A stretch of DNA of 64,000 nucleotides from Allocoleopsis franciscana PCC 7113. GTDB taxonomy: Bacteria; Cyanobacteriota; Cyanobacteriia; Cyanobacteriales; Coleofasciculaceae. A model generated the notes under the pieces. That model made no database searches. It was given only the letters and a program-made list of their open reading frames with translations, and was not told the DNA's origin. Of this stretch, positions 19,356 to 56,853 are shown piece after piece. Location of the stretch: positions 1,937,623 to 2,001,622 of the forward strand of contig NC_019738.1 in the NCBI RefSeq assembly GCF_000317515.1, written 5' to 3'. Position numbers and translations under genes: made by a program. How positions within the stretch are numbered: the first letter of the stretch is position 1; the number at the start of each line of letters is the position of its first letter.

Positions 19356-20288
19356 ATGACCAGTTATCACATTAATCCCGTCAAAATTGCAGTTGTCGGG
19401 GACGTCCACGAGCAATGGGAAAACGAGGATGCGATCGCTCTTAAGCAGTTAGGCGTTGACCTCGTTCTATTTGTGGGAGATTTTGGCAATGAATCGGTTG
19501 AAATCGTGCGAAGGATTGCTGCTCTCGACCTTCCTAAAGCCGCAATTATGGGCAATCATGATGCCTGGTATACGGCTTCGGATTGGGGACGAAAGCGTTG
19601 CCCTTACGACCGAAACAAGGAAGATTGGGTACAGGAGCAATTAGATTTGCTGGGAGAGACTCATCTGGGTTATGGGTACTTGGATTTTCCCCAATTTCAA
19701 CTTTCTGTGGTGGGGAGTCGTCCGTTTAGTTGGGGTGGAGAAGTTTGGAAGAATCAGGAATTCTATCAAGAACGATATGGCGTTAACAGTTTTGGGGAGT
19801 CGGTTGAACGCATCGTGGCAGCAGCGCAGAGTGCGGCTTATGAGACCATTATTTTTTTAGGTCACAATGGCCCCACTGGCTTAGGTGACAAGGCTGAAGA
19901 CCCCTGTGGTCGAGACTGGCAACCTTTAGGTGGTGATCATGGTGACCCGGATTTGGCAGAAGCGATCGCACAAACTCAGGCGCTAGGTAAAAATGTTGCT
20001 TTTGTTACCTTTGGTCACATGCACCATTCTCTACGCCATACCAAAGAGCAACGACGAAAGGCAATTGTGGCGAGTCCAGAGGGGACTGTCTACTGGAATG
20101 GTGCCAGTGTCCCCCGGATTATCCAAACGGAAACGAACAGACTGCGTAATTTTTCCCTGGTGTCCCTGGAGGCGAATGGGGTTTCCCAAATCTCCCTGGT
20201 TTGGGTGGGTCAAGACTATTCAGTCGTATCTGAACAGGTGTTCTATCAACGTCCTGAAGCGGTGGAAGTGCAACCGGTTTATAGTTAG
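19356..20288 (+). CDS. Calcineurin-like metallophosphoesterase
   Basis: IAVVGDVHEQW...LVLFVGDFGNES...GNHD...GHNGP...GHMHH are the metallophosphatase motifs. Confidence 0.75.
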   Translation: MTSYHINPVKIAVVGDVHEQWENEDAIALKQLGVDLVLFVGDFGNESVEIVRRIAALDLPKAAIMGNHDAWYTASDWGRKRCPYDRNKEDWVQEQLDLLGETHLGYGYLDFPQFQLSVVGSRPFSWGGEVWKNQEFYQERYGVNSFGESVERIVAAAQSAAYETIIFLGHNGPTGLGDKAEDPCGRDWQPLGGDHGDPDLAEAIAQTQALGKNVAFVTFGHMHHSLRHTKEQRRKAIVASPEGTVYWNGASVPRIIQTETNRLRNFSLVSLEANGVSQISLVWVGQDYSVVSEQVFYQRPEAVEVQPVYS

Positions 20289-20328
20289 TTCGCCATAAGT
20301 GCCAAGGATTGATATTATAGATTAGCCC

Positions 20329-20413
20329 GGAGAGGTGGCAGAGTGGTCGAATGCGCTCGACTTGAAATCGAGTGACTCGAAAGAGTCCGTGGGTTCGAAT
20401 CCCACCCTCTCCG
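20329..20413 (+). tRNA. tRNA-Ser (anticodon UGA)
   Basis: Acceptor stem GGAGAGG/CCTCTCC. Anticodon stem-loop GCTCGA-CTTGAAA-TCGAGT, giving anticodon TGA. Long variable arm GACTCGAAAGAGTCC. T-arm GTGGGTTCGAATCCCAC. Discriminator G, no encoded CCA. Folded by eye. Confidence 0.8.
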
Positions 20414-20549
20414 TTATCCAGTGAAACAGTATTGTGAGCGATCGCTTGGTTATATTGGTTCGTGACAGTGCAAATACACAAGTCGTTGTGCGTGAATCTC
20501 TGAAAGACGGCTGAACGCTTCTTCTCTCGGTTTGGTTGCGAGAGTTTAG

Positions 20550-20680
20550 ATCCCCCCCAGCCCCCCCACCCCCCTAATCCCCCCTTGGTAAGGGGGGACA
20601 TTAGAAACGAGGGGGGAGAAAACTCTTAAAGTCCCCCTTTTTAAGCCGGAGCCGAAGGTGAGGAGATTTAGGGGGATCTA
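20550..20680. repeat. Cluster of poly-C/poly-G palindromic hairpin repeats (C6-TTGGTAA-G6 core at 20579-20597) just downstream of tRNA-Ser
   Basis: Direct reading. Related copies lie at 21021-21039, 21643-21661 (inverted loop), 22119-22137 and 48331-48349. Confidence 0.75.
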
Positions 20681-20866
20681 ATCGTCTACCTCATCTGGCA
20701 TTACGTCAAAAACAATTTCATAAGGAACGCTGGGTATCATTTGCTTGAGGATTCGCAGATGCCCCTCCGCATCAACTCGGCGGCGAAAGCGCCCGACGAT
20801 GAGGGTACGCATATCGGGGAAGGGGCGGATGATGCACCAGGGATTGAGGCGTTGTAAGTAGGTCAT
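20678..20866 (-). CDS. Hypothetical small protein (62 aa), overlaps the upstream ORF by 4 nt (ATGA)
   Basis: ORF only. The translationally coupled pair architecture is the sole support. Confidence 0.3.
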   Translation of the reverse strand: MTYLQRLNPWCIIRPFPDMRTLIVGRFRRRVDAEGHLRILKQMIPSVPYEIVFDVMPDEVDD

Positions 20867-21183
20867 GACGATGTCCTAATTGGGTTTGCGGGTTGCTTTT
20901 TTAGGGCGCTTTGAATGATGGTTTCAAGGGTTTGGCGTCTGATGTCGTTGTCTTGCGGGTGAAGTACCCAGGCGCTGATTGGGGCGGGTTGATAAGTCAG
21001 CGTGTAGAACCCCCCTGTTTCCCCCCTTGTTAAGGGGGGACCAAGGGTGATGATGATTTTCCAGACGGGTTGTTTGGGTTGTTTACGAAGTCGGTAGCCG
21101 CGTTGATGCAGTGCTGCTTTTATGGCAGCAATATCTGTGGCGACTCGGAGTGCTTCCGTCGCTTTTGATTTTTTCATTGGTAA
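20863..21183 (-). CDS. Hypothetical protein (probable start MKKSKATEAL); contains a copy of the C6/G6 palindromic repeat in-frame
   Basis: ORF only. No recognisable domain. The PPLTRGETGG segment is encoded by the repeat at 21021-21039. Confidence 0.3.
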   Translation of the reverse strand, partial: LPMKKSKATEALRVATDIAAIKAALHQRGYRLRKQPKQPVWKIIITLGPPLTRGETGGFYTLTYQPAPISAWVLHPQDNDIRRQTLETIIQSALKKQPANPIRTSS

Positions 21184-21265
21184 TCTATTAGTAGACACGA
21201 CAGCGATTGCCCAGCAAGCGCTTGGCGCTCTAGGCAATTGCTTTTTTTGTTGTGGTTCAAAAAAG

Positions 21266-21320
21266 ATGTTCTGAAGACAGAACATTTCTATCTTACCTCA
21301 ATGTTCTGAAGATAGAACAT
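21266..21320. promoter_or_regulatory. Twin 20-bp palindromic operator-like sites (ATGTTCTGAAGACAGAACAT at 21266-21285; ATGTTCTGAAGATAGAACAT at 21301-21320) in a divergent promoter region
   Basis: Perfect 8-bp arms AGAACAT/ATGTTCT. The two copies are 15 bp apart and sit 39-93 bp upstream of the XRE-HTH gene start. Confidence 0.6.
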
Positions 21321-21358
21321 TTATTCGGTTATAAGCCTCTGACAAAGTTTCACAAGGC

Positions 21359-21598
21359 ATGGGAAGAGCAGGCAAAGCCCTTAAGCAAGTATTGGAAAAC
21401 TACGACATTACTCAGAATCGATTAGCTGTGGAGATGGGGATTAGTCGCTCTAGCGTTCACCGTTGGGTTTATGAAATTGGCGATCCTGTGGCTGATGCAG
21501 TGATTGATATTCGAGATGCGCTTCACAAGATTAATTCAGAGGCGGCTGAGGAGTTTATCAGGCTTTACCTTGGTGTTGTAGGTGAGGAGAAGGAGTAG
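21359..21598 (+). CDS. XRE/Cro-like helix-turn-helix transcriptional regulator
   Basis: ITQNRLAVEMGISRSSVHRWV is an HTH_3-like motif. 79 aa. Confidence 0.65.
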   Translation: MGRAGKALKQVLENYDITQNRLAVEMGISRSSVHRWVYEIGDPVADAVIDIRDALHKINSEAAEEFIRLYLGVVGEEKE

Positions 21599-21722
21599 GG
21601 ATAGGGGAAGAAAGTGCGATCGCATTTCTCTTCTCTCTTGCTCCCCCCTTACCAAGGGGGGCTGGGGGGGTAAGAGGAGAAACACTTATAACGACTGACA
21701 TCTATAAAACCCAACTATAGCT

Positions 21723-22088
21723 ATGACCAAACTTTATAACAGAGCATCCGAAAAAGCGAAACGACAACAGCTTCGGCAGAATATGACAAAAGCTGAATTT
21801 ATGATTTGGCAAAAACTCAAAGGTAAGCAGATTGAAGGCTGTAAGTTTCGCAGCCAATATGGTGTCGGTCAGTTCGTTATTGATTTTTATTGCCCTGAAC
21901 TTAAACTAGCGATAGAAATTGATGGAGACAGCCATTTTCAAGATGGCGCACAAGAATATGATCGGGAAAGACAGGCTTTTATTGAATCTGTTGGGATTAG
22001 GTTTTTAAGGTTTACGAATAATGAGGTGTACGATAATTTGGAAGGGGTTTTGGAGAGGATTACTCAGGAAATTTGGGAATTATGGTGA
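21723..22088 (+). CDS. DUF559 endonuclease-domain protein (Vsr/restriction-endonuclease-like fold)
   Basis: FRSQYGVGQFVIDFYCPELKLAIEIDGDSHF...DRERQAFIESVGIRFLRFTNNEV matches DUF559. Confidence 0.7.
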   Translation: MTKLYNRASEKAKRQQLRQNMTKAEFMIWQKLKGKQIEGCKFRSQYGVGQFVIDFYCPELKLAIEIDGDSHFQDGAQEYDRERQAFIESVGIRFLRFTNNEVYDNLEGVLERITQEIWELW

Positions 22089-22234
22089 GGTGATGAGTTA
22101 CGGATCTTACCCCCCCACCCCCCCTTGTTAAGGGGGGAGTAATATCAATTTACTCGCCGACTGAAAACAGATACTTTTTCTGTTCCCCCCTTGATAAGCC
22201 GGAGCTTTAGTGAGGAGTTTAGGTGTTAGCTCTA

Positions 22235-22918
22235 TTACTGGCTAAGTAATTCAATTAAGTCGTTCTTCCTCTTCTTGCTGTAGCCAGCTATCCCACGCTT
22301 TTTAGCCATATCTCTCAGCTCTCCAGCAGTTAGGGTGTTTAAGCTAGTAGACTCTTTGATAACTTCAGGCATGGGTTGAGGGGTTAAGTAGAAGACTTCC
22401 TTTAAAGCATTTAGCTTCTTACCTTTGGTAATACCACACTTGAGTGTTGTAATTGGGTCTAGTGTTTTCCAGTACTGACGAGGAGCTTCATCAATGCGAT
22501 CGGTAGCAATCAAAAGCTTAACTCCCTTAAGTTCAGCACCAGGTTTTTCAATTAAATATTGGAGTGCAGCTTTAATGTCATCTCTCGTGGCTGTAGAAAG
22601 GTTGATTTTTGGTGTTACTTCGCCTGATAGAACTTTAGTCAGTTCTACAGTTTCGTTACTAGAATCAGCAATAATGCACCAGACTTTCTCTAAACCCGCT
22701 TCTTCAGCAACAGCATAGATAAATGAGTTGCCAATGACTTCATATTGGTCTTCGCCAATTTCTTTGACAATTACAGGAACCCAATTACGACCGCCTAACT
22801 TGTTGAGAGTTTTTGCTGTAGCGGTAATCAAAAATTCAGGAGCATCTGTCCCTTCACCAGGTTGAATTTCATCCATGTACAGATGCATTAAGTTACCAAT
22901 ATCACTTAAGTTGCTCAT
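22235..22918 (-). CDS. ParB-like N-terminal-domain protein with C-terminal Rho_N/SAP-like motif
   Basis: NWVPVIVKEIGEDQYEVIGNSFIYAVAEEAGL resembles the ParB/Srx fold but lacks the canonical GERRxRA arginines. The C-terminus LTAGELRDMAKKRGIAGYSKKRKNDLIELL is Rho_N-like. Its start overlaps the parA stop (ATGA). Confidence 0.55.
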   Translation of the reverse strand: MSNLSDIGNLMHLYMDEIQPGEGTDAPEFLITATAKTLNKLGGRNWVPVIVKEIGEDQYEVIGNSFIYAVAEEAGLEKVWCIIADSSNETVELTKVLSGEVTPKINLSTATRDDIKAALQYLIEKPGAELKGVKLLIATDRIDEAPRQYWKTLDPITTLKCGITKGKKLNALKEVFYLTPQPMPEVIKESTSLNTLTAGELRDMAKKRGIAGYSKKRKNDLIELLSQ

Positions 22919-23771
22919 TGCAGAAAATACTCCTTCGCTAACTCTAGATAATACTGACGAGCTGTTTTGTCTTTGTAAGCAGCAGGCATACGAGAAAAAG
23001 CCGCACTAGCTATATGAGCATAACTAGGTAGTTCAAAGATATGACGATCTTTTTTAGCTGGAGTGTAGCGAGGATAGAAATAGGGAAGCATGTCAAACTT
23101 TTTTTGTTTATCTTTCTTAGCCTCTTCAATGAGGTTATCTATCGCATGATAAGCAGTAATTTTTTGGGGTTCTGGAATCTTCTCGCCATTGAAGAAAATT
23201 GGTAGTGCAATAGGTCCACCATCTTTTCTTACTTGTTGAACTTCAGGGATAAATCGTTTGATAGCTATGGCTGCATTCTCTAGGGAAAAGATGTTGTTGT
23301 GCTTAGTTGGAATTAGCACAACATCTGAGGCATATATAGCACTTGCACTCAAGAATCGCCAGTTAGGAGGTGAATCAATCAAAATGTAATCATATTCAGA
23401 CTTTAAACTATCTAATATTTGACGAAGCCTGAATATTTTAAATCTTTGGCGTAACTGGTCTTCACTCAGACTAGCTAACAATTCATCAGCAGGAATAATA
23501 TCAAACTGAAATGATTGACCATTTCTTGCATTCTTTGTGACGAATGGCTGTATTACATCACCAGGTTTGACACTGTTTTTTTTATCTTCCAAGTAAGAAG
23601 AGAAGGTTTCCTTACCTTGTTTTATAGATAATGAATTAGTAAGGTCTTGCTGGTTAGGGTCGAAGTCAACAATGAGAGCTTTTTTCCCTTTAATGTGAGA
23701 ACAGCAGCTAAATTAACAGTAGTCGTCGTTTTGCCTACCCCGCCTTTATTGTTGTATATTGCTACTGTCAA
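22915..23771 (-). pseudogene. parA: ParA/MinD-family partition ATPase, reading frame broken by a 1-nt deficit in an A6 tract at about 23690-23700
   Basis: The Walker A box KGGVGKTT lies in the upstream ORF (23622-23936). The remainder (ALIVDFDPNQ-like continuation, YDYILIDSPPN) lies in ORF 22915-23592, which is in the +1 frame. One extra A in GGGAAAAAAGCT would fuse them. The TTG start near 23771 is inferred. Confidence 0.65.
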
Positions 23772-44277: not shown

Positions 44278-44561
44278 AAGCGAGTTTTGAAATCATTTAG
44301 CGTCAGTTTAACCAAATTTTGGGCAACGCAAGGAACTTGTCAGGGCAAGTCAGGAAATGTCAGCTGAAACCCACATTCCGCAGGTTGCTGATAGAGTCAG
44401 AGGTATTTTTCAGTACTCTAGAGAGTTTTTTCGGGAGCATCCCAATTTTGCAAGAAGGCAAGAGAACGGGAAGTTTATTCGCGATTTTTACTCGCGAATA
44501 AAGGCCGACTAGGCGGATGTTGCCCTAACTGCGACAATTTAATTAGTTAGGGAGCCTCTTT

Positions 44562-45640: not shown

Positions 45641-45719
45641 AAAACCCAAAAACAGTATGAAAAGAAGCACGCTGCTTTTTTTCGCGAGTTACAATCGCGA
45701 ATAATTAGGATTTATCTTT

Positions 45720-46130: not shown

Positions 46131-46503
46131 ATCTCCCGAAGTATTCGCGATTATTACTCGCGAATAATGGCTGTCCCTTTATTTTTGCACAATTGGGATG
46201 CTCTCGTTTTTTCTGAAAAAGGCGATCGCAAAAGACGTTTCCAGTATGTTATTGATGATGATAATCACAACGACTCAGCGTTGACTTCAATGAAGGCATC
46301 AAAAGCCAAGGAAATACAACGCTAATTAGTGAGCATATACTGCCGCCCAGAAATAGTGACAGATTCAACACAGCCCAATCAGCTCAAGCCACCGACTCAG
46401 CCAGCATGATAATAACGCCTCGCTTCGGTTCCCAAAAAGCGGAGGATTTTCTGTCGTTCCGGTGTCAGATTAGTAATGTGCTCCACACCATCGACAATCA
46501 ATT

Positions 46504-49500
46504 GTGACAGTTGCGTACGTCCTGATAGAGTTTGACAAACGATATACTTTGGGAAACGGATGGCAGTCCTTCATCGGGGAGCATTCAATGATTACCCTGC
46601 CTGGAATTACTATCCACAGCAAAATTTATGAGAGCTTAGCTTCTTTGGTGTATCGGGGCATCAGAGAGCAAGATGATTGTGCAGTGATTGCCAAAGTTCT
46701 CAAGCAGGATTATCCCTCTCCTCAGGAATTAACTCGCTATCGGCAGGAGTATGAAATTACTCGTTTTCTCAACATTGAAGGCGTAGTCAAGGCATACAGC
46801 CAGCAAGACTACCAGCGCACGCTGGTTATTCTTTTGGAAGACTTTGGTGGAGAGTCTTTAGAATGCTGGATGCGGCAACAGTTAGACTTCTCTCCCATGC
46901 CGTTGTCGGTTTTTCTGAAAATGGCGATCGCCATTACTGATACTCTAGGCAAAATCCATGCGGCTCATGTCATCCATAAGGACATTAATCCTGGCAACAT
47001 TGTCTTTAATCCGAGGACTGGCGTTGTCAAAATCATTGATTTTGGCATTGCCACTCGCTTCAGTCGCACCAATCCCACCTTCAAAAGTCTCCATCTTCTA
47101 GAAGGAACCCCCGCCTATTTGTCGCCAGAGCAAACCGGACGAATGAACCGGATGCTCGACTATCGCACTGATTTCTACTCGCTGGGTGCAACCTTCTACG
47201 AACTGTTGACGGGACAATTGCCGTTTCCCACCCGTGATCTCCTGGAACTAGTCCACTGTCACATTGCTACACCGCCGATTCCTCCACACGAAGTTAGGGG
47301 TATGGGGGATGGGGTGTGGGGTGTGGGCAGGGATGGTTCATCATCGACCAGGCATACAATTCCTAAAGCAGTTTCCGACATTGTGATGAAACTGATGGCG
47401 AAGAATGCAGAGGATCGCTATCAGAGTGCCTGGGGCATCAAAGCAGATCTAGAATGCTGTGCTCAACAACTGGCAGAAACGGGTCAGATTAACGCCATAT
47501 CGTTGGGACTGCAAGATGTTTCCGAGCAGTTCCGCATTCCTCAAAAACTGTATGGGCGAGAAGCGGAGATTGCAGCATTATGGGTAGCGTTTGACAGAGT
47601 GACGGGGAATCGGGAATCGGAAGTCGAGAATCGGGAAAAACACCCCACACCCTACACCCCACACCCCACACCCTACACCCCACACCCCACACCCCACACC
47701 CTACACCCTACACCCTCATGCAGCGAAATGATGCTGGTCTCTGGTTACGCTGGCGTTGGCAAAACAGCATTGGTACAGGAACTCTCTAAACCGATTACCG
47801 CAAAGCACGGCTATTTTATCTCTGGCAAATTTGACCAATTCCGGCGCAACATTCCCTACAGCGCGATCGTTGATGCTCTGCAAAATTTGGTGCAGCAACT
47901 CTTGGGAGAACCCAATGAACAGGTGGAAGTATGGCGATCGCGTTTACTCACTGCTTTGGGAAGCAACGGACAAATTATCATAGATGTCATTCCCGAAGTT
48001 GAGTTCATTATTGGCAAGCAGCCCCCTGTGCCCGAAGTTGGAGCAACTGAGGCACAGAATCGCTTCAATCTTACGTTTCAAAGGTTTGTGCGGGCGTTTT
48101 GTGCAAAAGAGCATCCCCTAGTCATTTTCTTAGACGATCTACAGTGGATCGATTCTGCGACGTTGAAGTTAATCGAACTCGTCTTACTTGATGAGCAAAT
48201 CCAGTATTTGTTTTTGATCGGAGCCTACCGAAATAACGAACTGACTCCAACGCATCCGGTGGTCTTAACGCTCTTAGAACTGCGAAACCAGGGAGCAGTA
48301 TTTCAGGAAATCATCCTGACCCCCCTCAATCCCCCCTTGGTAAGGGGGGAAGTAAAGGGGGGTGGCAGTGGAACCTGGCTGAGATTGAAGCTCAAGATAT
48401 CACCGATAATGTGGTGGAGTTGCTGCTGCGTCAGTTGCAAAAATTACCGGAAGCAACACAGCAAGTTCTCTCCATCGCTGCTTGTGTTGGGTCTGAGTTT
48501 GATTTAGAAACGTTGGCGATCGTTTGCGAAAAATCACCGAAAGCAATTTTCCAGGATTTATTAGAAGCAATACAATCTGGATTAATTCAACCTTTGTCTG
48601 AATTGGACGAAGACTTGTTGGTTCAAGAGTATAAGTTTCTGCACGATCGCGTTCAGCAAGCGGCTTATGCTTTGATTGATGAATCGCAGAAACAAGTGGT
48701 TCATCTCCAAATCGGTGGCAATTTGCTCGAAAAAACTTCACCAGAGCAACGATCCGATCGGTTGTTTGAAATCATCGATCATCTCAATCAGGGAATTGAG
48801 CTAGTCACTGCTCAACCAGAACGAACTGAAATTGCCAGATTGAATTTAATAGCAGGTCAGAAAGCGAAGGCAGCAACGGCTTATGAAGCCGCGTTTAAGT
48901 ATTTCACTACAGGGATTCAACTTCTCAATCCAGAGAGTTGGCAGAGTGAGTATGACCTTACTTTAGCGCTGTACTCAGAAGCAGCAGAAGCAGCATATCT
49001 TCATGGTTGCTTTGATGAGATGGAACAATTCGTAGAAGTGGTACTCGTTCACGCTAAGACAGTGGTTGACAAAGTGCAGGTTTACGACAGCAGAATTCAA
49101 AGACATTTGTCACAGGGCAACCTGAAAGAAGCACTTAAAATTGGATTGGAAGTGTTAAAGCTTCTGGGAGTGATTTTACCAGAAAATCCAAGTGAGTTAG
49201 ATGTTCGAGGCGGATTGGAGTCAACGGCTGCACTACTCGCTGAACGAGAAATTGAAGACTTGATTAATTTACCAGAGATGACTGCACCAGAACCGCTAGC
49301 AGCAATGTCAATCCTAGCGAGTATTGGAGCGACTGCGTTTATAGTTTCGACAGCACTACAGGTACTTATTGCGTGCAAAATGGTAAATTTATCGCTCGAC
49401 TACGGCAATTCTACCTGGTCACCAATGAGTTATGCTGCCTATGGAGTTGTTCTATGTGGAGTTGTTAAAGACATTGAACTTGGTTATAAATTTGGCAAAT

Positions 49501-52500
49501 TGGCTCTCGGTTCGCTAGAACGATTGAATACCAAAAAAAGGGATGCTAAAGCATTTGTGGTATCGGTTGCCCTAATCATGCACTGGAAAGTGCATCTTAG
49601 GAACACAATACCCATGCTGATTGATGCTTATCAAAACGGAGTGGACACTGGAGACTTTGAATTCGCTGGCTATGCTGCATGTGACGTGTGCTACAACTCG
49701 TTTTTCGTCGGTGAGGAACTCACCCAACTGGAACAGAAAACGGCAACATACAGCAAAGCAGTTGATCGAATCAGACGGGAAAGCCCCTCGACTTGGATTG
49801 CAATAGTGTGGCAGACCATTCTTAATTTGCTAGACAGGTCTGAGAATCCCAGTCGCTTAGTTGGTCGAGTGTGTAATGAAGAGCAGGCATTACCACACGC
49901 CCTTGAAGTTAAAGATGGAACTGCAATTCAAATGCTATATCTGCACAAAGTTATACTGTGTTATCTATTTGAAGAATATCATCAAGCTGTACAGAGTGCT
50001 ATTCTGGCAAGGCAACATTTTGAAGAAGTGACAGCAACAAAGGTTTTACCTGTATTCTGTTTCTATCATTCTCTAGCGTTTTTGAGTCTATCGCTCGATG
50101 CTTCAAACTCTGAAAAAGTAGCTTGGCTAAACTGTGTTAACACCAACCAAGAAAAGATGCAGAAATGGGCAGAACACGCCCCAATGAATTATCTACATAA
50201 ATTTTATCTAGTCGAGGCAGAGAAAGCGCGAGTCTTAGGGCAATTTCTTGAGGCTGAAGAGTTTTATGAACGGGCGATCGCAGGTGCTGCTGAAAATGAG
50301 TATATCCAGGAGGAAGCATTAGCTTATGAATTAGCGGCTAAGCATTATCTAGCGCGAGGTCGAGAGAAAATTGCTCAAACTTATATGAAAGAGGCGCACT
50401 ATTGCTATAGTCGCTGGGGCGCGATCGCTAAAGTTAAAGACTTAGAAAAACGCTATCCACAGTTCTTTTGTCAGTCGTCTAGAGCCGCTTCCGCATCAGT
50501 TCCTATTACTGCTGAAACTATCTCTAATTCCTTCCATACTGCTTTCGATTTAGCAGCAGTGATGAAAGCTTCACAGGCGATTTCTCGTGAAATTGAACTG
50601 AAGCAATTGCTGCGATCGCTGATGCAAATTTTAATTGAGAATGCTGGCGCACAAACCGGATATCTGATTTTAGAAAACTCAGGAGAATGGTCGATTGAAG
50701 CGGCTTGTGAACTCAATGCCGAGGAGAATGCTTGTGCGACTCAGGTGTTACAGTCTACTCCAATTGCCGCTCAATTGCCAGAATCAATCATTCAATATGT
50801 GATTCGGACTCTGAAGCCTGTCACCTTAAATGATGCGACTCGTGAAGATGCTTTTATTAATGAGCCATACATTCAACAGAACCAGCCTCAATCTATTTTC
50901 TGTTTGCCGCTGCTGAATCAAGCCAAGCTGGTCGGTGTATTGTATTTAGAAAATCGGTTAGCCGCTGGAGTATTTACACCAGAGCGATCGCAAGTCTTGC
51001 AGCTATTATCGACTCAAGCCGCAATCGCCATCGAAAATGCCAACCTTTACTCAGAACTGCGGGCTAAGGAAAGCAAGATCACCCAGTTCCTCGAAGCGAT
51101 TCCGGTGGGAATTGGGATCGTGGATGCGACGGGTCGCCTTTACTATACCAACCAATGCGGCAATCAACTCGTGGGCAAAGAGACTGATCCTTCCATCGCA
51201 CCAGAGCAGATCTCAGAGGCTTATCAGCTTTATGTAGCGGGAACGGATCAAGTCTATCCAGCGGAGAGCTTGCCTATTGTGCAGGCATTAAAGGGCGAAC
51301 GCATCAGGACTGAAGATATAGAAATTCGTCGAGATCATGTCTCAATTCTACTTGAGGCACGGGGAACACCAGTTTTTGATCAACAGGGCAATATCATTTA
51401 TGCGATCGCTACCTTTCAGGACATTACGGAGCGCAAACAAGCCGAGAAACTCCTAGCTGACTACAACTGCACTTTAGAGCAACAGGTTGCAGAACGAACT
51501 GCTGCGTTACGACAAAGTGAGGCTAATTACCGCAACCTGCTACAAACCGCGAATTCAGTCATCGTTCGCTATGATCCGCAAGGACGGATTCACTACATCA
51601 ACGATTATGGGGTAAAACTTCTGGGCTATGAAGAACATGAGATTTTAGGGCGAACCTTATTTGAAACCATCCTTCCAGATATCGAACTCTCTGGACGCGA
51701 TATGAAACCCTTTGTCCATGATTTACTTCGTAATCCTCAATCGTACCCGCGAGGTGAGGGTGAAAATTTGTGTCGAGATGGTCGGCGAGTTTGGATGGAG
51801 TGGTCGAATCAAGCCATTTTCAATGACCAGGGAGATGTCGTTGAAATCTTATCGGTGGGCAACGACACCACCCAGCGTAGACAAGCAGAAGAGGCATTAC
51901 AACGCAGTGAAGCCAAGTTCCGAGCTATCTTTGCAAACTCCCAGGTTGGCATCTACCGCACCCGCATCGGTGATGGATTAATTCTTGATGCCAATCAACG
52001 CTTTGCAGAACTGTTTGGCTTTGATTCACCCCAAGAGATGATTGGAATTGAACACACTATAGGCTATTGGGTCAATCCCAGCGATCGCCAACGAGGCATT
52101 GAAGTGATGAAGCGGGATGGGGAAGTGCGAAGCTTTGAAGCACAGTTGCAAAAACGAGATGGGACAGTGTTTTGGGGACTTTTCTCTTCCTATCTGAATG
52201 CAGGCGATGACTACATCGAAGGGGTGCTTGCAGATATTAGCGATCGCAAACAAGCAGAAGCAGCCCTACAAGTCTCAGAGTCAAAGCTACGGACTCTAAT
52301 TGAGGCAATTCCCGATCCATTGTTTGTATTCTCTGCTGAAGGGCGATTCCTTGAAATAATGGTACTGGAACCAAATCTGCTATGGCAACCCTTTGAGGAG
52401 ATGATTGGTAAAACTATGCATCAACTCGGAAGGGAAGAAGCTGATGAGTTTCTAGGTTATATTCAGCAGGTACTGAGAACCCAACAAATCCTCACGGTCG

Positions 52501-53237
52501 AGTATGGTGCGTTTCTAAATGGACGAGAAATGTGGTTTTCGGCTCGCATTGCCCCAATCAGCCACGATCAGGTGATTTGGCTGGTGCGAGATATTACGGC
52601 GCAGAAGCAAGCAGAAGCCACCTCGATTCTGGAAGAGCGTAACCGCATGGCACGCGAAATTCACGACACACTCGCTCAGTCGTTTACGGGCATTCTGGCT
52701 CAGGTGGGAGCGGCGAAACAGGTGCTAACGGATGATTTAGAAGCAACTGGGGCACATCTCGATCTGATCAAAGAATTGGCGCGAACTGGACTGACTGAAG
52801 CGCGGCGATCGGTTGTCGCGCTCCGTCCTCAGCTTTTGGAGGAAGGCAGTTTACAAAGTGCTCTCCATCGTCTCGTCGCTCAGGTTAGAGCTGCCGCAAT
52901 GGATACCACTTTGTACTATGAGATTGAGGGTGCAGTGTATGCTCTACCCAGCGAAGTCGAGAGTAACCTACTGCGGATTGGGCAGGAAGCCTTAACCAAT
53001 GCGATTAGACACGCCCATGCTGACGAAATTCGAGTGGAGCTAGTCTACAAGTATGATCAGTTTTTGTTGCGCGTAAAAGACAATGGACAGGGCTTTGGAG
53101 TGGGCAGTATTCCCTCCTCTGAGGGCTTTGGCTTACTCGGCATGAGCGAGCGGGCAGAGCGCATCGGTGCACAACTCACGATTCGGAGTCAACCCGGACA
53201 CGGAACAGAGATTATTGTCACCATCGATCGGGAGTAA
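46504..53237 (+). CDS. Giant multidomain signalling protein: Ser/Thr protein kinase - AAA/STAND ATPase - TPR-like - GAF - 3xPAS - HisKA_3/HATPase histidine kinase (HstK-like); frame interrupted at 48331-48374
   Basis: Kinase HKDINPGNIVFN...DFGIA...PAYLSPEQ. Walker A GYAGVGKTAL. GAF region around aa 690-850 of the second ORF. PAC ends (ITERKQAE, DISDRKQAEAAL, ITAQKQAEA). H-box EIHDTLAQSFTGI, with a GFGLLGMSERAE ATPase. Two ORFs (46504-48507 and 48411-53237) overlap in different frames across a palindromic repeat insertion. Confidence 0.75.
47296..47335. repeat. Heptanucleotide tandem repeat block (GGGGTGT/GGGGATG type), translated within the kinase domain
   Basis: ggggtatgggggatggggtgtggggtgtgggcagggatgg encodes RGMGDGVWGVGRDG. 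Confidence 0.7.
47605..47715. repeat. Heptanucleotide tandem repeat blocks: (GAATCGG)n then (CCCCACA/CCCTACA)n, about 11 units, in inverted orientation to the 47296 block
   Basis: Encodes NRESEVENREK then HPTPYTPHPTPYTPHPTPHTLHPTP. A 21-nt periodicity keeps the frame. Confidence 0.8.
48331..48374. repeat. Inserted copy of the C6-TTGGTAA-G6 palindromic repeat family inside the giant kinase gene (about 44 bp, not a multiple of 3)
   Basis: Flanking codons read ...IILTPLN | insert | LAEIEAQ... in frames that differ by one nucleotide. Confidence 0.65.
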
Positions 53238-53244
53238 GCTCACG

Positions 53245-53874
53245 ATGAGCCAAGCCACGACCATTCGGGTTCTAATTGCGGACGATCATGCTATCTTTCG
53301 GCAAGGATTAGCCACGATTATTAACCGTGACCCTGATATGAACGTGATTGCCCAAGCGGAAAATGGGGAACAAGCGATCGCGCTATTTGAGGAACACCAA
53401 CCGGATGTCACGCTCATGGATCTGCGAATGCCTGAAGTTGAAGGAGTTGCCGCCATCGGTGCAATTCGTGCTATTGCTAAATCTGCTCGGATTATTGTAC
53501 TAACCACGTATGATAGTGACGAAGATATTTACCGGGGATTGCAGGCAGGAGCCAAAGGATATCTGTTGAAAGAAACTGAACCAGACGAGCTTCTGAATGC
53601 GATTCGTACCGTTTATCGGGGTCAGCAGTATATTCCGCCCGATGTGGGAGCAAAATTAGCACAGCGACTCAGCAATCCAGAACTGAGTGAAAGAGAACTA
53701 GAAGTACTTCGCTCACTAGCACAGGGAATGAGTAATGCGGAAATTGCGGCGGCTTTGAGTATTGGTGAAGGCACGGTTAAATCTCATGTCAATCGGATTT
53801 TGAATAAGTTAGATGTGAGCGATCGCACCCAGGCTGTGATTGTTGCGGTTAAGCGCGGCATTGTTAGTTTGTAG
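53245..53874 (+). CDS. NarL/FixJ-family response regulator (REC plus LuxR-type HTH)
   Basis: IRVLIADDHAIFRQGL receiver. C-terminus ELEVLRSLAQGMSNAEIAAALSIGEGTVKSHVNRILNKL. GGAG Shine-Dalgarno before the ATG at 53245. It is the cognate regulator for the HisKA_3 kinase upstream. Confidence 0.85.
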   Translation: MSQATTIRVLIADDHAIFRQGLATIINRDPDMNVIAQAENGEQAIALFEEHQPDVTLMDLRMPEVEGVAAIGAIRAIAKSARIIVLTTYDSDEDIYRGLQAGAKGYLLKETEPDELLNAIRTVYRGQQYIPPDVGAKLAQRLSNPELSERELEVLRSLAQGMSNAEIAAALSIGEGTVKSHVNRILNKLDVSDRTQAVIVAVKRGIVSL

Positions 53875-54271
53875 GGTGTACTTTCGATCAAATGGAGATT
53901 CTAACTTAAGTTAGAGTCAGCCTTCTACTCTGCGATGGCAGGGTTACTCTATCAATTTGTACTATAAAACTTTTAACTCTCTATAGACGACAGCTTGAAG
54001 GCGATCGCCTATATTGAGTTTATGCAAATAGAAGTGCATCCAATCAGGCAAATCATGCTCGTGGGTGGTGGTTACCCTTTATAGCAAAAGGCAGAAGGCA
54101 GGAGGCAGAAGGCTTTTATGTTTTTTACTGGTATAGCAGTCGCCAAGGCGATTAGAACAAATGCCCCAAAGCTAATTGTCAATCCCAGCTTTTGCAATGT
54201 CCTAACGGTTGTGGCGGTTGCTATACGTGGTCGTTTAAGCCGTTCAATCTGTCCTAAGAGGCTGTTTGTAA

Positions 54272-54802
54272 ATGATTATGAAGTCATCAATCAATACATC
54301 ATTGACCTGGAAAACAACGTTGTCATTTGTAACCCTTGCCACCCTACTCATTCTGCTGATTGGCTGGCTCATCAAAAATCAAGTATTGCCAGTCAAGACA
54401 GTTATAGATTACAGCGCATGGGAAACCAACTTTATACAATTTTGGATCTGGGTGGCTATTGGAGTTGGGCTACTACTCCCTGGCATTGCTTTCTTGGTTT
54501 GGCTGCGTTATCCCGAACCTCGAAAAATTTTAGGCTTCTATTTACTAGTTTTACTTGTTCAGATAATAACTGAACAAATTTTAAGTAGCATTTTGTTTCC
54601 CAGTTTACTGGTAATTATCGGAACTATTTACACGATTTATCGGATTTGGCAATTATGGCAGAGTCAACAGGTTGTAAATAAAAATACTCAACTCAATACA
54701 TTTAGCCCAAAAGTTCTTAATAGTTTATTGCATCTCTTACTACTTTTTTGGTCAATCAATTTAGCAGTTCTCTTAGTTTTGTGTTTTCCTGCCATTGTAT
54801 AG
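54272..54802 (+). CDS. Hypothetical polytopic membrane protein
   Basis: 4-5 hydrophobic helices. No recognisable motif. Confidence 0.4.
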   Translation: MIMKSSINTSLTWKTTLSFVTLATLLILLIGWLIKNQVLPVKTVIDYSAWETNFIQFWIWVAIGVGLLLPGIAFLVWLRYPEPRKILGFYLLVLLVQIITEQILSSILFPSLLVIIGTIYTIYRIWQLWQSQQVVNKNTQLNTFSPKVLNSLLHLLLLFWSINLAVLLVLCFPAIV

Positions 54803-54925
54803 ATGGATGCAGAATTTATTTACCGCATCAGTACGTGATTCAACAACGGGTGGAACGGGCGAAATCGATGTTATCGAAAACGGATTTAACGAACTTTGGG
54901 GGTTTAAATCCCCGTCCCAAAACGT

Positions 54926-54958
54926 AATTGCGAATTGCGAATTGCGAATTGCGAATTG
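54926..54958. repeat. STRR-like heptanucleotide tandem repeat (AATTGCG) x 4.5
   Basis: aattgcgaattgcgaattgcgaattgcgaattg, read directly. Confidence 0.8.
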
Positions 54959-54961
54959 TTT

Positions 54962-55065
54962 TAACCATTGCTGATATTGCTTTCCAAACCGGGTTTTCCA
55001 GTCAGAGCCATTTGAACCAATAGTTTAAGCGAATTACTCGAATGACACCAAAGCAGGTTCGTTAA
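54962..55065 (+). pseudogene. AraC-family regulator C-terminal remnant with in-frame stop
   Basis: Translation IADIAFQTGFSSQSHLNQ*FKRITRMTPKQVR* matches the last AraC HTH helix consensus (...GFSSQSHFSRxFKRxxGxTPxxYR). There is no upstream ORF. Confidence 0.5.
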
Positions 55066-55162
55066 TTCCACAAGAATCTGACAAATCATTGTAAGAATTT
55101 GAAAGAAGTCGAGCCTTGGAACTCAATACACTTTAAATAAATAGAACTAGGAGAATCCAATC

Positions 55163-55756
55163 ATGGTCAAACAGCAATCTGTAGACGAACAAGCAAATGG
55201 AAAGGCAACTAGTAATCTGACACCAGCCCAGGAGTTTTTGCAAGAACTCTGGGATGAGCATCTGCGGCTTGAGTTTGACGCTCACAACACTGAAGATACT
55301 CTCGCCACGATGGTTGAGGATGCTTACGTTAACGGCATTCCGGTAATGATTGGGGGAGTAGGAAAACCGGCACTGCGCGAGTTTTATTCCAAGTACTTCA
55401 TTCCACAGATGCCGCCGGACATGGAGTTGACTCCGGTCTCGCGCACAATCGGGACTAATCAACTCGTCGATGAAATGCTAGTTAAGTTCACTCATACCAT
55501 CCAGATGGACTGGATGCTACCTGGCATTGCTCCGACTCTTAAACGGGTTGAAATGGCATTGGTAGTAATTGTTCAGTTTCGTGACGACAAGCTAGCCCAC
55601 GAACACCTCTACTGGGATCAGGCGAGTGTATTGGTTCAACTCGGTATGCTTGATCCGGGTACACTGCCCGTTGTAGGAGTTGACAGTGCGCGCAAGGTAC
55701 TTGATCCGAACTTGCCCTCAAACGCACTGATCGATCGTGCCAGCGATCGCAACTAA
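55163..55756 (+). CDS. SnoaL/NTF2-like ester cyclase family protein
   Basis: The C-terminal LAHEHLYWDQASVLVQLGMLDP resembles the ester-cyclase/SnoaL_2 tail (EHWD..D...QLG). 197 aa. Confidence 0.5.
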   Translation: MVKQQSVDEQANGKATSNLTPAQEFLQELWDEHLRLEFDAHNTEDTLATMVEDAYVNGIPVMIGGVGKPALREFYSKYFIPQMPPDMELTPVSRTIGTNQLVDEMLVKFTHTIQMDWMLPGIAPTLKRVEMALVVIVQFRDDKLAHEHLYWDQASVLVQLGMLDPGTLPVVGVDSARKVLDPNLPSNALIDRASDRN

Positions 55757-56085
55757 GTGCAGGAGCCAGCAAATATCAATGCCTAAACCCGCCATTTTGC
55801 AACCAGGATCGTACTCATCCTGGTTGTAGGAGGTGCTTCTTATTGCTGGCTCCTACACGTATTGCTCATTGAGTTTTTGACAAAGTGACACAGCCATTCA
55901 CAACAAGAGGTAACTATCATAATGCTGAAAGACAAGGTTGCTTTGGTGACTGACTGTAAAAATTTTAACTCGCTATAGAAGACAGCTTGAAGGCAATTTC
56001 CTATATTGAATGTATGCAAATAGAGATGCAGTCAATGGATTGAGCAAGTCAATTGCAAAGTTCCGTACTTGCTGCAAACGTAAAA

Positions 56086-56645
56086 AAATGAACGACGATC
56101 GCAGCTACAGTTCCTTACTTGTACCCCCCTCAACTCAAGATTGGATGCAAGGTGTGCTGAGTGCCAAGGTCGTGCTGGTGATGTATGGAGACTATCAATG
56201 CTCTAGAAGTGCGGACGTTTACAGGATAATTCAAAGAATCAAACAAGAGCTGAGTGCTTCTTTTGGAGAAGATTATTTATGCTTTATCTTCCGTCATTTT
56301 CCGCAAACACAGATTCATCCTCATGCTCAACGAGCCGCCGAAGTTGCTGAAGCCGCCGCTGCACAAGGACAATTTTGGTTGATGCACGATACTTTATTTG
56401 TTCATCAACAGAAGTTAGAGAACGGTTACCTGATCGAGTATGCCAATGATTTAGGGCTTGATATGCCTCAATTTCTCAAAGATGTGTCTAAACAAGTGCA
56501 TAGCGATCGCATCAATGAAAATGTTGAAGGCGGAATACACAGTGGAGTAACAACTGCTCCAGCCCTATTCATCAATAACATTCGATATGCCGGACGCTGG
56601 AAGATGACAGAGTTAATGACAGCCATTGTTGCTGCAAATCACTAA
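56086..56645 (+). CDS. DsbA-like thioredoxin-fold protein (CxxS variant)
   Basis: VVLVMYGDYQCSRSADVYRII is a thioredoxin-like active-site region with CSRS. Thioredoxin_4 layout. The probable start is MNDDRSY; the ORF track begins at 56010. Confidence 0.6.
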
Positions 56646-56853
56646 GCTCTATTCATAACTGGTCAACCGTTAGTGATTGATAACAGATATACAGTGAGTT
56701 CATCAAGCCTCGTGAATGAGCAACTTGTAAATGCTCGGTTTTAATCTCAGGAATAAGTGCCTCCAATGAAGCTAGCGGATTTTAGTAAGCACACCGCTGA
56801 GGCAATTCGATTTGAACTATTCAATCAATAAGTTTTACACAAGGAAAACAATG

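Follow-up and report, generated by a model that had tools for sequence, protein, structure and literature searches.

A repeat-seeded deletion as the probable origin of a split dual-kinase gene in Allocoleopsis franciscana PCC 7113

The stretch of DNA considered here, 64,000 nucleotides (nt) from the cyanobacterium Allocoleopsis franciscana PCC 7113 (hereafter the window), carries at 46504-53237 a gene for a regulator that unites a Ser/Thr kinase and a histidine kinase and that is broken by a change of reading frame at a small hairpin repeat. Comparison with its relatives makes it very probable that the locus is a recently formed, strain-specific pseudogene, produced by a 169-nt deletion seeded by short direct repeats after an older insertion of the hairpin. 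If so, the public annotation needs correcting, since what it lists as two proteins, AFZ17588.1 and AFZ17589.1, are pieces of a single inactivated gene. The case is an ordinary and well-documented one that opens no new question; it would show, base by base, how a small hairpin repeat, harmless when it enters a gene, may bring about the later loss of that gene by creating a short direct repeat.

The locus and the segment missing at its junction

The product of the upstream open reading frame (ORF A), a protein of 639 amino acids (aa), is identical to AFZ17588.1/WP_015181740.1, a record that belongs to a 7.47-Mb contig, presumably the chromosome. ORF A occupies 46504..48507 in frame 1 of the + strand, with a likely ATG at 46588 that yields the annotated protein and a stop at 48505-48507, and ORF B, on the same strand in frame 0, is open from 48237 to 53237. 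The latter is represented by AFZ17589.1 (1574 aa) and WP_041779948.1 (1608 aa), both named "PAS domain S-box protein", and the locus stands in the public record as two genes annotated separately. A previous interpretation made from the letters of the window alone (the sequence-only reading) had taken them as one gene split across two frames one nucleotide apart, with a Ser/Thr-kinase / AAA / GAF / PAS / histidine-kinase architecture; the ORFs, their frames and the junction reads described below agree with the first point, and Pfam with the second. In ORF A, Pfam finds Pkinase (2.4e-33, residues 19-279) and AAA_16 (1.7e-39), and the translation displays the HKD, DFG and SPE motifs of the kinase as well as the Walker A (GYAGVGKT) and Walker B (VIFLDDLQW) motifs of the NTPase core. 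ORF B contains GAF_2 (9.6e-16), GAF (2.4e-15), three to four PAS domains, HisKA_3 (4.1e-17) and HATPase_c (1e-13), with zero additional stops over 4.8 kb.

What distinguishes the window copy is a conserved coding segment that it lacks at the junction of the two frames. In protein alignment, close homologues read ...QEIILTPL-TLEPLSQLIAETLHHNPDIVRSLAQAVSRKTEGNPFFVGEFLKLLYGENLLTFDAQQLS-WQWNLAEIEAQDITDNVVE..., that is, LTPL, then 59 aa containing GNPFF, then WQWNLAEIEAQDITDNVVE, whereas in the window only 35 nt lie between the end of TPL (48327) and the start of WQW (48363). Among the 80 related loci recovered in a scan of metagenome contigs, on which the counts of spacer, frame and motif rest, the distance from TPL to WQW is 171-270 nt without exception and exactly 177 nt in 50; in these loci and in four plasmid orthologues the spacer thus amounts to 57-90 codons, usually 59. 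The reading frame is kept across it in 79 of the 80 loci, and the motif GNP[FY]F lies within it in 78 of the 80 and in all four plasmid orthologues. The 14 nearest metagenomic loci have a single uninterrupted frame of 1858-2559 aa. The claim that the flanks "...FQEIILTPLN / LAEIEAQ..." form continuous STAND sequence therefore fails, because relatives carry 171-270 nt of conserved coding sequence at that point.

The same segment is missing from the window in DNA alignments with the metagenomic loci L001 (92.6% identity) and L002 (81.6%), and the net difference is 142 nt against hairpin-free orthologues such as L001 and 169 nt against a third locus, L164, considered below. When seven metagenomic and four plasmid orthologues are compared with the window by blastn, the alignments break off at 48323-48326, or at 48332 for one plasmid, and start again at exactly 48363. 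The insert had been placed at 48331-48374 (44 bp), limits that these break points revise: TGGCAGTGGAAC (48363-48374), inside them, is native and codes for WQWN, and CTCAAT (48325-48330), outside them, is repeat sequence rather than native Leu-Asn codons. Of the expected parts of a STAND NTPase module of the AAA_16 ("PknK-like") type, the Walker A/B core is present and the putative GxP-type motif of the helical domain (T-x-G-N-P-F-F) is deleted, GNPFF being presumably equivalent to the GxP motif of this class. A search of solved structures with the STAND region returned no real homologue, the sole match being a designed repeat protein (E = 1e-4).

The first protein search gave only proteins of at most 1308 aa, although the database is not capped at that length, since it includes P0121 (1608 aa), so that early matches (P0001, P0003) are biased toward broken or partial genes, as are L001 and L002, which came from the same kind of search; the intact orthologues were obtained by searches at the DNA level.

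At the change of frame lies a nested C6/G6 hairpin, in keeping with the hairpin repeat previously noticed at the break. Its arms pair 48330-48338 with 48342-48350 and 48319-48326 with 48356-48363 in the layout ACCCCCC-TCAAT-CCCCCCTTGGTAAGGGGGG-AAGTAAA-GGGGGGT, and its RNA fold has an energy of -33.8 kcal/mol. The junction and the lengths of its homopolymers are real: Logan contigs assembled separately from SRR610358 and SRR29904085 are exact substrings of the window (47665/47687-48686), and because these two independent read sets match it exactly, homopolymer or assembly error is ruled out. The refuting condition named in the sequence-only reading, independent reads with an insert length divisible by three, is likewise answered in the negative, the reads reproducing the junction base for base. 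The exact junction 35-mer has no match in metagenome contigs. The two Logan contigs (L203 and L204) also share a peculiarity of their own, in that both start within an array of heptamers and both end at exactly 48686; this common end suggests a branch in the assembly graph, such as a nearly identical paralogue at another site of the genome would cause.

Two changes at one site and the explanations for them

The metagenome contig L164, 91.5% identical to the window, separates the hairpin from the loss of sequence. The segment upstream of the hairpin is intact in it, and the same hairpin occupies the same site, ...CTGTTGACCTTTGAC-TCCCCTCAATCCCCCCTCAGTAAGGAGGGAAGTGAAGGGGGG-TGGCAATGG... (CTGTTGACCTTTGAC ends in TTTGAC), where it is read in frame as ...LLTFD-SPQSPLSKEGSEGG-WQW.... 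Where hairpin-free orthologues have 15 nt (AQQLS), L164 has 42 nt and so is longer by 27 nt. The elements of window and L164 are identical at 37 of their 42 positions, and even the spacers TCAAT and AAGT(A/G)AA, which vary elsewhere, correspond; a three-way alignment of window, L164 and L001 contains exactly two differences here: a 27-nt insertion shared by window and L164, and a 169-nt deletion found only in the window. The shift of frame thus comes from the window-only deletion and not, as had been proposed, from an insertion of 44 bp, the hairpin having entered in frame. As to whether orthologues lack the repeat, a check proposed in the sequence-only reading, the four intact plasmid orthologues do and L164 does not.

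The ends of the deleted interval are marked by short repeats. L164 has TGACTCC at both ends, 169 nt apart, the left copy within CTG-ACT-CCT (Leu-Thr-Pro) and the right copy where TTT-GAC meets the C-run of the element; L001 keeps the native left copy as TGACCCCC (CTG ACC CCC). In the window TGACCCCC is present as a single copy, at 48317-48324, the only one in 48201-48450. One repeat copy at the junction, together with a distance between repeats that equals the length lost, is the signature of deletion between short direct repeats. The 169 nt comprise 56 codons, GNPFF among them, plus one base (169 = 3x56+1), and since the repeat copies stand in different codon phases, the deletion itself causes the frameshift. 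Read in frame 0, the window retains D-PPQSPLGKGGSKGG-WQW, which corresponds to the peptide of L164.

The point before WQW is evidently a variable surface loop, to judge from the homologues compared. Other subfamilies have 4-31 extra codons there, and L161, a more distant homologue (~62% amino-acid identity), has an insertion of ~90 nt of related C/G hairpins directly before WQW with the frame open. The insertion in L161 is an independent one, and its presence shows that the TPL-WQW loop tolerates such inserts.

These comparisons suggest the following course. The ancestor would have been a plasmid-borne, horizontally mobile gene of ~2,300 aa (Ser/Thr kinase, STAND NTPase, GAF, PAS repeats, HisKA_3 histidine kinase), followed by the gene for a NarL-type regulator and then by a DsbA gene. 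In an older step, common to L164, the 42-nt nested C6/G6 hairpin would have replaced 15 nt in the variable loop upstream of WQW, a net gain of 27 nt that left the frame open and was probably tolerated. In PCC 7113 only, the native TTTGAC and the C-run of the hairpin would have made a second TGACCCCC, 169 nt downstream of the native CTG-ACC-CCC, and deletion between the 8-nt direct repeats, by replication slippage or microhomology-mediated repair, would then have removed 169 nt, taking the GNPFF segment and shifting the frame. What remains would be a kinase/NTPase fragment of 639 aa that ends in a nonsense tail, and a sensor histidine-kinase ORF of 1,600 aa that lacks a proper start; the full-length regulator would presumably no longer be made, and the response regulator would be left without its cognate full-length kinase. 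The proposal that the gene as sequenced is a pseudogene is supported. Because the deletion also takes 56 codons including GNPFF, restoring the frame would not restore the protein, and both correction and switching are unlikely since either would leave it incomplete.

As to age, substitutions placed on terminal branches by parsimony give the window branch a ratio of nonsynonymous to synonymous change (dN/dS) of 0.06-0.09 for the kinase/NTPase half and of 0.23-0.28 for the sensor half, values indistinguishable from those of the L001 and L164 branches. The individual figures of 0.085 for the 5' part and 0.28 for the 3' part fall in these ranges. Given this low ratio and the absence of further stops in ORF B, the deletion appears recent relative to the few per cent of divergence on the window branch.

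Several observations weigh against a recent two-step loss. Low dN/dS and two long intact ORFs are also to be expected if both halves are still used. Further complicating the history, L164 is slightly closer overall to L001, which has no insert (93.9%), than to the window (91.5%), so that common descent of the insert needs either recombination between alleles or two insertions of the same element at one site; the order of events and the shared ancestry of the hairpin insertion are what we infer from the alignments. A 2-nt deletion 95 nt past the hairpin breaks L164 as well, which is therefore no proof that the hairpin alone is compatible with function.

When proteins were searched with the insertion peptide of L164, with a view to intact genes in which the hairpin is in frame, 98 candidates gave one uninformative match. 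The nearest relatives have lesions of their own: three single-base indels in L001 (~10856, 10907 and 11554), a TGG-to-TGA stop in L002 (~3712) and the 2-nt deletion in L164 (~3906), which reflect either frequent decay of a mobile gene or assembly errors.

The use of both halves could take the form of a working gene fission, in which the kinase/NTPase of ORF A and the sensor histidine kinase of ORF B are both expressed and act separately or as a complex, with ORF B starting at GTG 48411 or a nearby TTG and possibly coupled to translation of ORF A (97-nt overlap). Besides the low terminal-branch dN/dS and the length of both ORFs, free of further lesions, such a fission would suit the intact histidine-kinase core (H-box, HATPase_c), the intact regulator and the public annotation of two genes (AFZ17588.1 and AFZ17589.1/WP_041779948.1). 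It is nevertheless improbable, as none of the 80 metagenomic loci and none of the four plasmids has a break here, the window copy lacks a segment that all relatives conserve, and ORF A ends in 59 out-of-frame residues, while the 5' end of ORF B has neither an ATG nor a convincing Shine-Dalgarno sequence or ribosome-binding site nearby and ORF B would begin in the middle of the STAND helical region.

Much less likely still is a switchable or recoded gene, in which the frames are joined through a peptide ...EIILTP(P)QSPLGKGGSKGGWQW..., either by phase variation (slippage within the C6/G6 runs) or by a -1 ribosomal frameshift that the hairpin stimulates, the internal deletion of 56 residues remaining. 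Frame 0 is indeed open across the whole element from 48237, the hairpin (-33.8 kcal/mol) follows a few nt after the C-run, and there are four 6-nt homopolymer runs; yet no canonical X XXY YYZ slippery site exists (the only candidate, C CCC CCU, is non-canonical), six-base tracts are short for phase variation, and tract lengths are identical in SRR610358 and SRR29904085, the accession numbers of which lie about a decade apart. The earlier idea that the repeat made the gene switchable also meets the difficulty that the GNPFF segment, universally conserved, would be missing even from a joined product.

Homopolymers and short repeats are error-prone in 454-era assemblies, and an artefact, whether a collapse between two hairpin copies or a miscalled homopolymer, is all the same scarcely credible when both Logan assemblies are identical to the window over 47687-48686 and the repeats are far shorter than a read. 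Finally, a simple 44-bp hairpin insertion into continuous coding sequence, reversible by precise excision or a one-base correction, has in its favour that a hairpin lies exactly at the frame change and that 44 is no multiple of three, and it has practically no chance of being right, being refuted by the three-way alignment and the plasmid orthologues: 169 nt are missing against L164 (net 142 nt against hairpin-free L001), the flanks "N" and "WQWN" were misassigned, and the same hairpin is in frame in L164.

Features of the split dual-kinase locus in the window, with the basis of each assignment
Feature	Coordinates	Strand	Basis
5' part of the putative ancestral dual-kinase gene: Ser/Thr kinase, linker, Walker A/B NTPase (AAA_16), to the Leu-Thr-Pro codons	46588..48324	+	frame 1; Pfam; blastn break point
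Window-specific in-frame insertion, 54 nt, G-rich heptamers (GGGGTGT-like), in the kinase domain	47300..47353	+	absent from L001, L002, L164 and all plasmid orthologues
In-frame tract, 102 nt, in the kinase-NTPase linker; from 47640 tandem CCCCACA/CCCTACA heptamers (HPTPYTP...)	47615..47716	+	absent from L001 and L164
Fused single copy of the 8-nt direct repeat TGACCCCC, probable site of the 169-nt deletion	48317..48324	+	comparison with L164 and L001
C6/G6 nested-hairpin repeat, 42 nt, CCCCCTCAATCCCCCCTTGGTAAGGGGGGAAGTAAAGGGGGG	48321..48362	+	37/42 identical to the in-frame element of L164
Out-of-frame tail of ORF A, 59 residues, NPPLVRGEVKGGGSGTWLRLKLK..., overlapping the start of the downstream frame	48328..48507	+	translation; also in AFZ17588.1 and Logan fragment P0124
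3' part of the putative ancestral gene from the conserved WQW: rest of the STAND region, GAF, 3-4 PAS, HisKA_3, HATPase_c	48363..53237	+	frame 0; Pfam; blastn
NarL/LuxR-type response regulator, intact, syntenic with orthologous modules	53245..53874	+	Pfam; alignment

Two in-frame tracts with heptamers in ORF A are a further feature that L001 and L164 lack. That in the kinase domain includes VRGMGDGVWGVGRDGSSS... (region 47297-47353), and the linker tract at 47615-47716 contains the inverted complement of 47297-47327 (31 nt, 87%), with ~320 nt between them; a shorter linker array occurs in the homologue P0006 of Leptolyngbya sp. FACHB-541. Both tracts presumably resemble the classical STRR heptamer repeats of cyanobacteria.

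The hairpin repeat and its wider distribution

The 19-nt core of the hairpin, CCCCCCTTGKTAAGGGGGG, has five copies in the window as against 0.01 expected by chance, the four besides the junction copy lying at 20.5-22.2 kb. Exact copies were found in at least 120 stretches of other genomes, mostly cyanobacteria (Microcoleus, Coleofasciculus, Nostoc, Scytonema and Symploca), and also in Phycisphaerae, Isosphaeraceae, Nitrospirae, Calidithermus/Meiothermus and one metagenome-assembled genome (MAG) of Chloroflexota. A further C-run lies within 18 nt upstream in 85 of 137 copies, and a G-run downstream in 48. The same nested layout, ACCCCCC-N-CCCCCCTTGGTAAGGGGGG-N-GGGGGGT, is seen again in distant phyla (L003-L122, e.g. 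L012, L027, L058, L065, L101 and L117); an Isosphaeraceae MAG (L117) has ACCCCCCTCAAT-CCCCCCTTGGTAAGGGGGG-AAG, with a spacer that matches that of the window, and tandem arrays with a period of 36-42 nt are seen in L027, L047, L053 and L068. An Rfam scan of the hairpin cluster (20000-23000) gave only a tRNA (20329-20413) and sub-threshold noise, with no family for the hairpin, and a full-text search of 8 million papers by hairpin sequence had no match. Elhai et al., as cited in PMC3733652, reportedly described very small dispersed hairpin repeats of cyanobacteria in 2008.

In its general features the C6/G6 hairpin resembles, as far as the compared sequences go, untagged REP-like repeats. Like REP/REPIN elements, it is a short (~20-45 nt), G+C-rich palindrome that is dispersed, mostly intergenic, sometimes tandem and occasionally translated as a short peptide within genes (PMC3733652). 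It differs from them in its ends and its distribution: REP/REPIN elements have a GTAG or CGTC tag at one end (PMC3733652), whereas the flanks of the 137 copies show C- and G-runs instead; and the occurrence of one core and nested architecture in several phyla is unusual for REPINs. REP/REPIN elements also associate with a RAYT (Y1) transposase gene of the same genome; within the 64 kb of the window, the ten ORFs scanned include no transposase.

A more ambitious interpretation, which we regard as doubtful, would make the nested hairpin ACCCCCC-N3-5-CCCCCCTTGKTAAGGGGGG-N3-7-GGGGGGT a mobile or templated element that crosses phyla (cyanobacteria, Planctomycetota, Nitrospirota, Deinococcota and Chloroflexota), enters coding loops in frame and, if this is true, acts as a general cause of both loop variation and gene decay. 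It would involve at least two independent entries into the same kinase loop, one in the lineage of window and L164 and one in L161, with C/G runs seeding deletions by microhomology, and it may include a link to DUF559 endonuclease genes.

The window offers an example of such proximity. A DUF559 gene (Vsr-like endonuclease, PF04480, 4e-31; 121 aa) at 21723-22088 is bracketed by two C6/G6 hairpins, 45 nt upstream and 14 nt downstream (region 21635-22145), and others lie at 20552-20625 and 21002-21047. A DUF559 homologue is present in three of 120 hairpin loci, in two of them 65-78 nt from the hairpin (L097, Coleofasciculus; L031, Chloroflexota), an association too weak for the hairpins to be the mark of a DUF559 mobile unit, and this idea was rejected.

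A second palindromic repeat family, TATTCGCGA-N-TCGCGAATAA, is found at 44476-44505, 45679-45708 and 46142-46171, where its copies flank two ORFs without Pfam domains (284 and 136 aa) directly upstream of the kinase module.

The module, its plasmid relatives and known dual kinases

The kinase gene forms part of a module, 46528-56648 in the window, that comprises the kinase, the NarL-type regulator and DsbA. The regulator, which the sequence-only reading had called intact, is so, with Response_reg (1.4e-29) and GerE (3.3e-20) both found by Pfam; its region is colinear with orthologues through 54031, and orthologous modules have annotated regulators too. The module is present on large plasmids of four other genera, in Oscillatoria nigro-viridis PCC 7112, Gloeocapsopsis dulcis, Trichormus variabilis ATCC 29413 and Nostoc flagelliforme (L205, L206, L207 and L208), with 85-96% nucleotide identity segment by segment, and three of the four plasmids are typed as conjugative. 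This distribution shows that the module is horizontally mobile and moves between cyanobacterial orders on large plasmids, and it implies that the transfer was recent.

All four plasmid orthologues are single intact coding sequences (CDSs) of 2106-2361 aa that include the GNPFF segment and lack the hairpin, e.g. WP_015179706.1 (O. nigro-viridis PCC 7112, pOSC7112.02, 2345 aa), WP_105217883.1 (G. dulcis, 2350 aa) and WP_011316785.1 (T. variabilis ATCC 29413, plasmid C, 2361 aa). They share the gene order of the window (kinase, NarL-type regulator, DsbA) but differ from it in being uninterrupted, in lacking the heptamer insert of the kinase domain, in having one more PAS unit and in being plasmid-borne rather than on the 7.47-Mb contig.

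The borders and interior of the module show other rearrangements. Homology to the plasmid modules ends sharply at both module borders in the window. The additional PAS-sized unit of 360-390 nt, present in plasmid orthologues (L205, 9686-10045) and in L002 (5437-5826), is missing at ~52242-52271 in the window, where the break falls at a recurring ...DI(T/S)(E/D)RKQAE... boundary repeat (family D2), which suggests unequal recombination between PAS repeats. Between regulator and DsbA, the window has a 1.99-kb segment (54032-55952), encoding a predicted membrane protein and a SnoaL-like protein, that no orthologous module contains; direct repeats of 84 nt (53961-54044 and 55953-56036, 85% identical) flank it, and it looks like a duplication-associated insertion. 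An inverted copy of the 155 nt after the regulator stop (53877-54031) precedes the kinase gene in several orthologous loci, where it lies immediately beyond the 3' end of a divergent WD40 gene (L123, 5303-5457; L205, 3225-3379; L207, 721-875); the window has no copy at that place. The 155 nt may be a shared 3' element or terminator.

Cyanobacterial "dual protein kinases" (Ser/Thr kinase family III) have an N-terminal Ser/Thr kinase, at least one GAF domain and a C-terminal histidine kinase, are abundant in filamentous cyanobacteria and include HstK (Alr2258) and Pkn40/Pkn41 of Anabaena PCC 7120 (PMC2176072). The window locus has the Ser/Thr kinase, a GAF domain between the kinase domains and C-terminal HisKA_3 and HATPase_c; these do not stand on one polypeptide in this copy, although the orthologues are single CDSs. 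By domain content it is thus best regarded as a disrupted member of the dual protein kinase family. It is like HstK and Pkn40/Pkn41 in the order of Ser/Thr kinase, GAF and histidine kinase, and differs from them in being interrupted and in having a STAND/AAA_16 NTPase module and a core of the HisKA_3 type, the partner of NarL-type regulators. Likewise, the proposed origin has its counterpart in pseudogenes that arise by deletion between short direct repeats, with which it shares the single 8-nt copy left behind and a repeat distance, 169 nt, equal to the length lost; what sets it apart is that one of the two repeats would not have been native but made by the earlier insertion of a hairpin.

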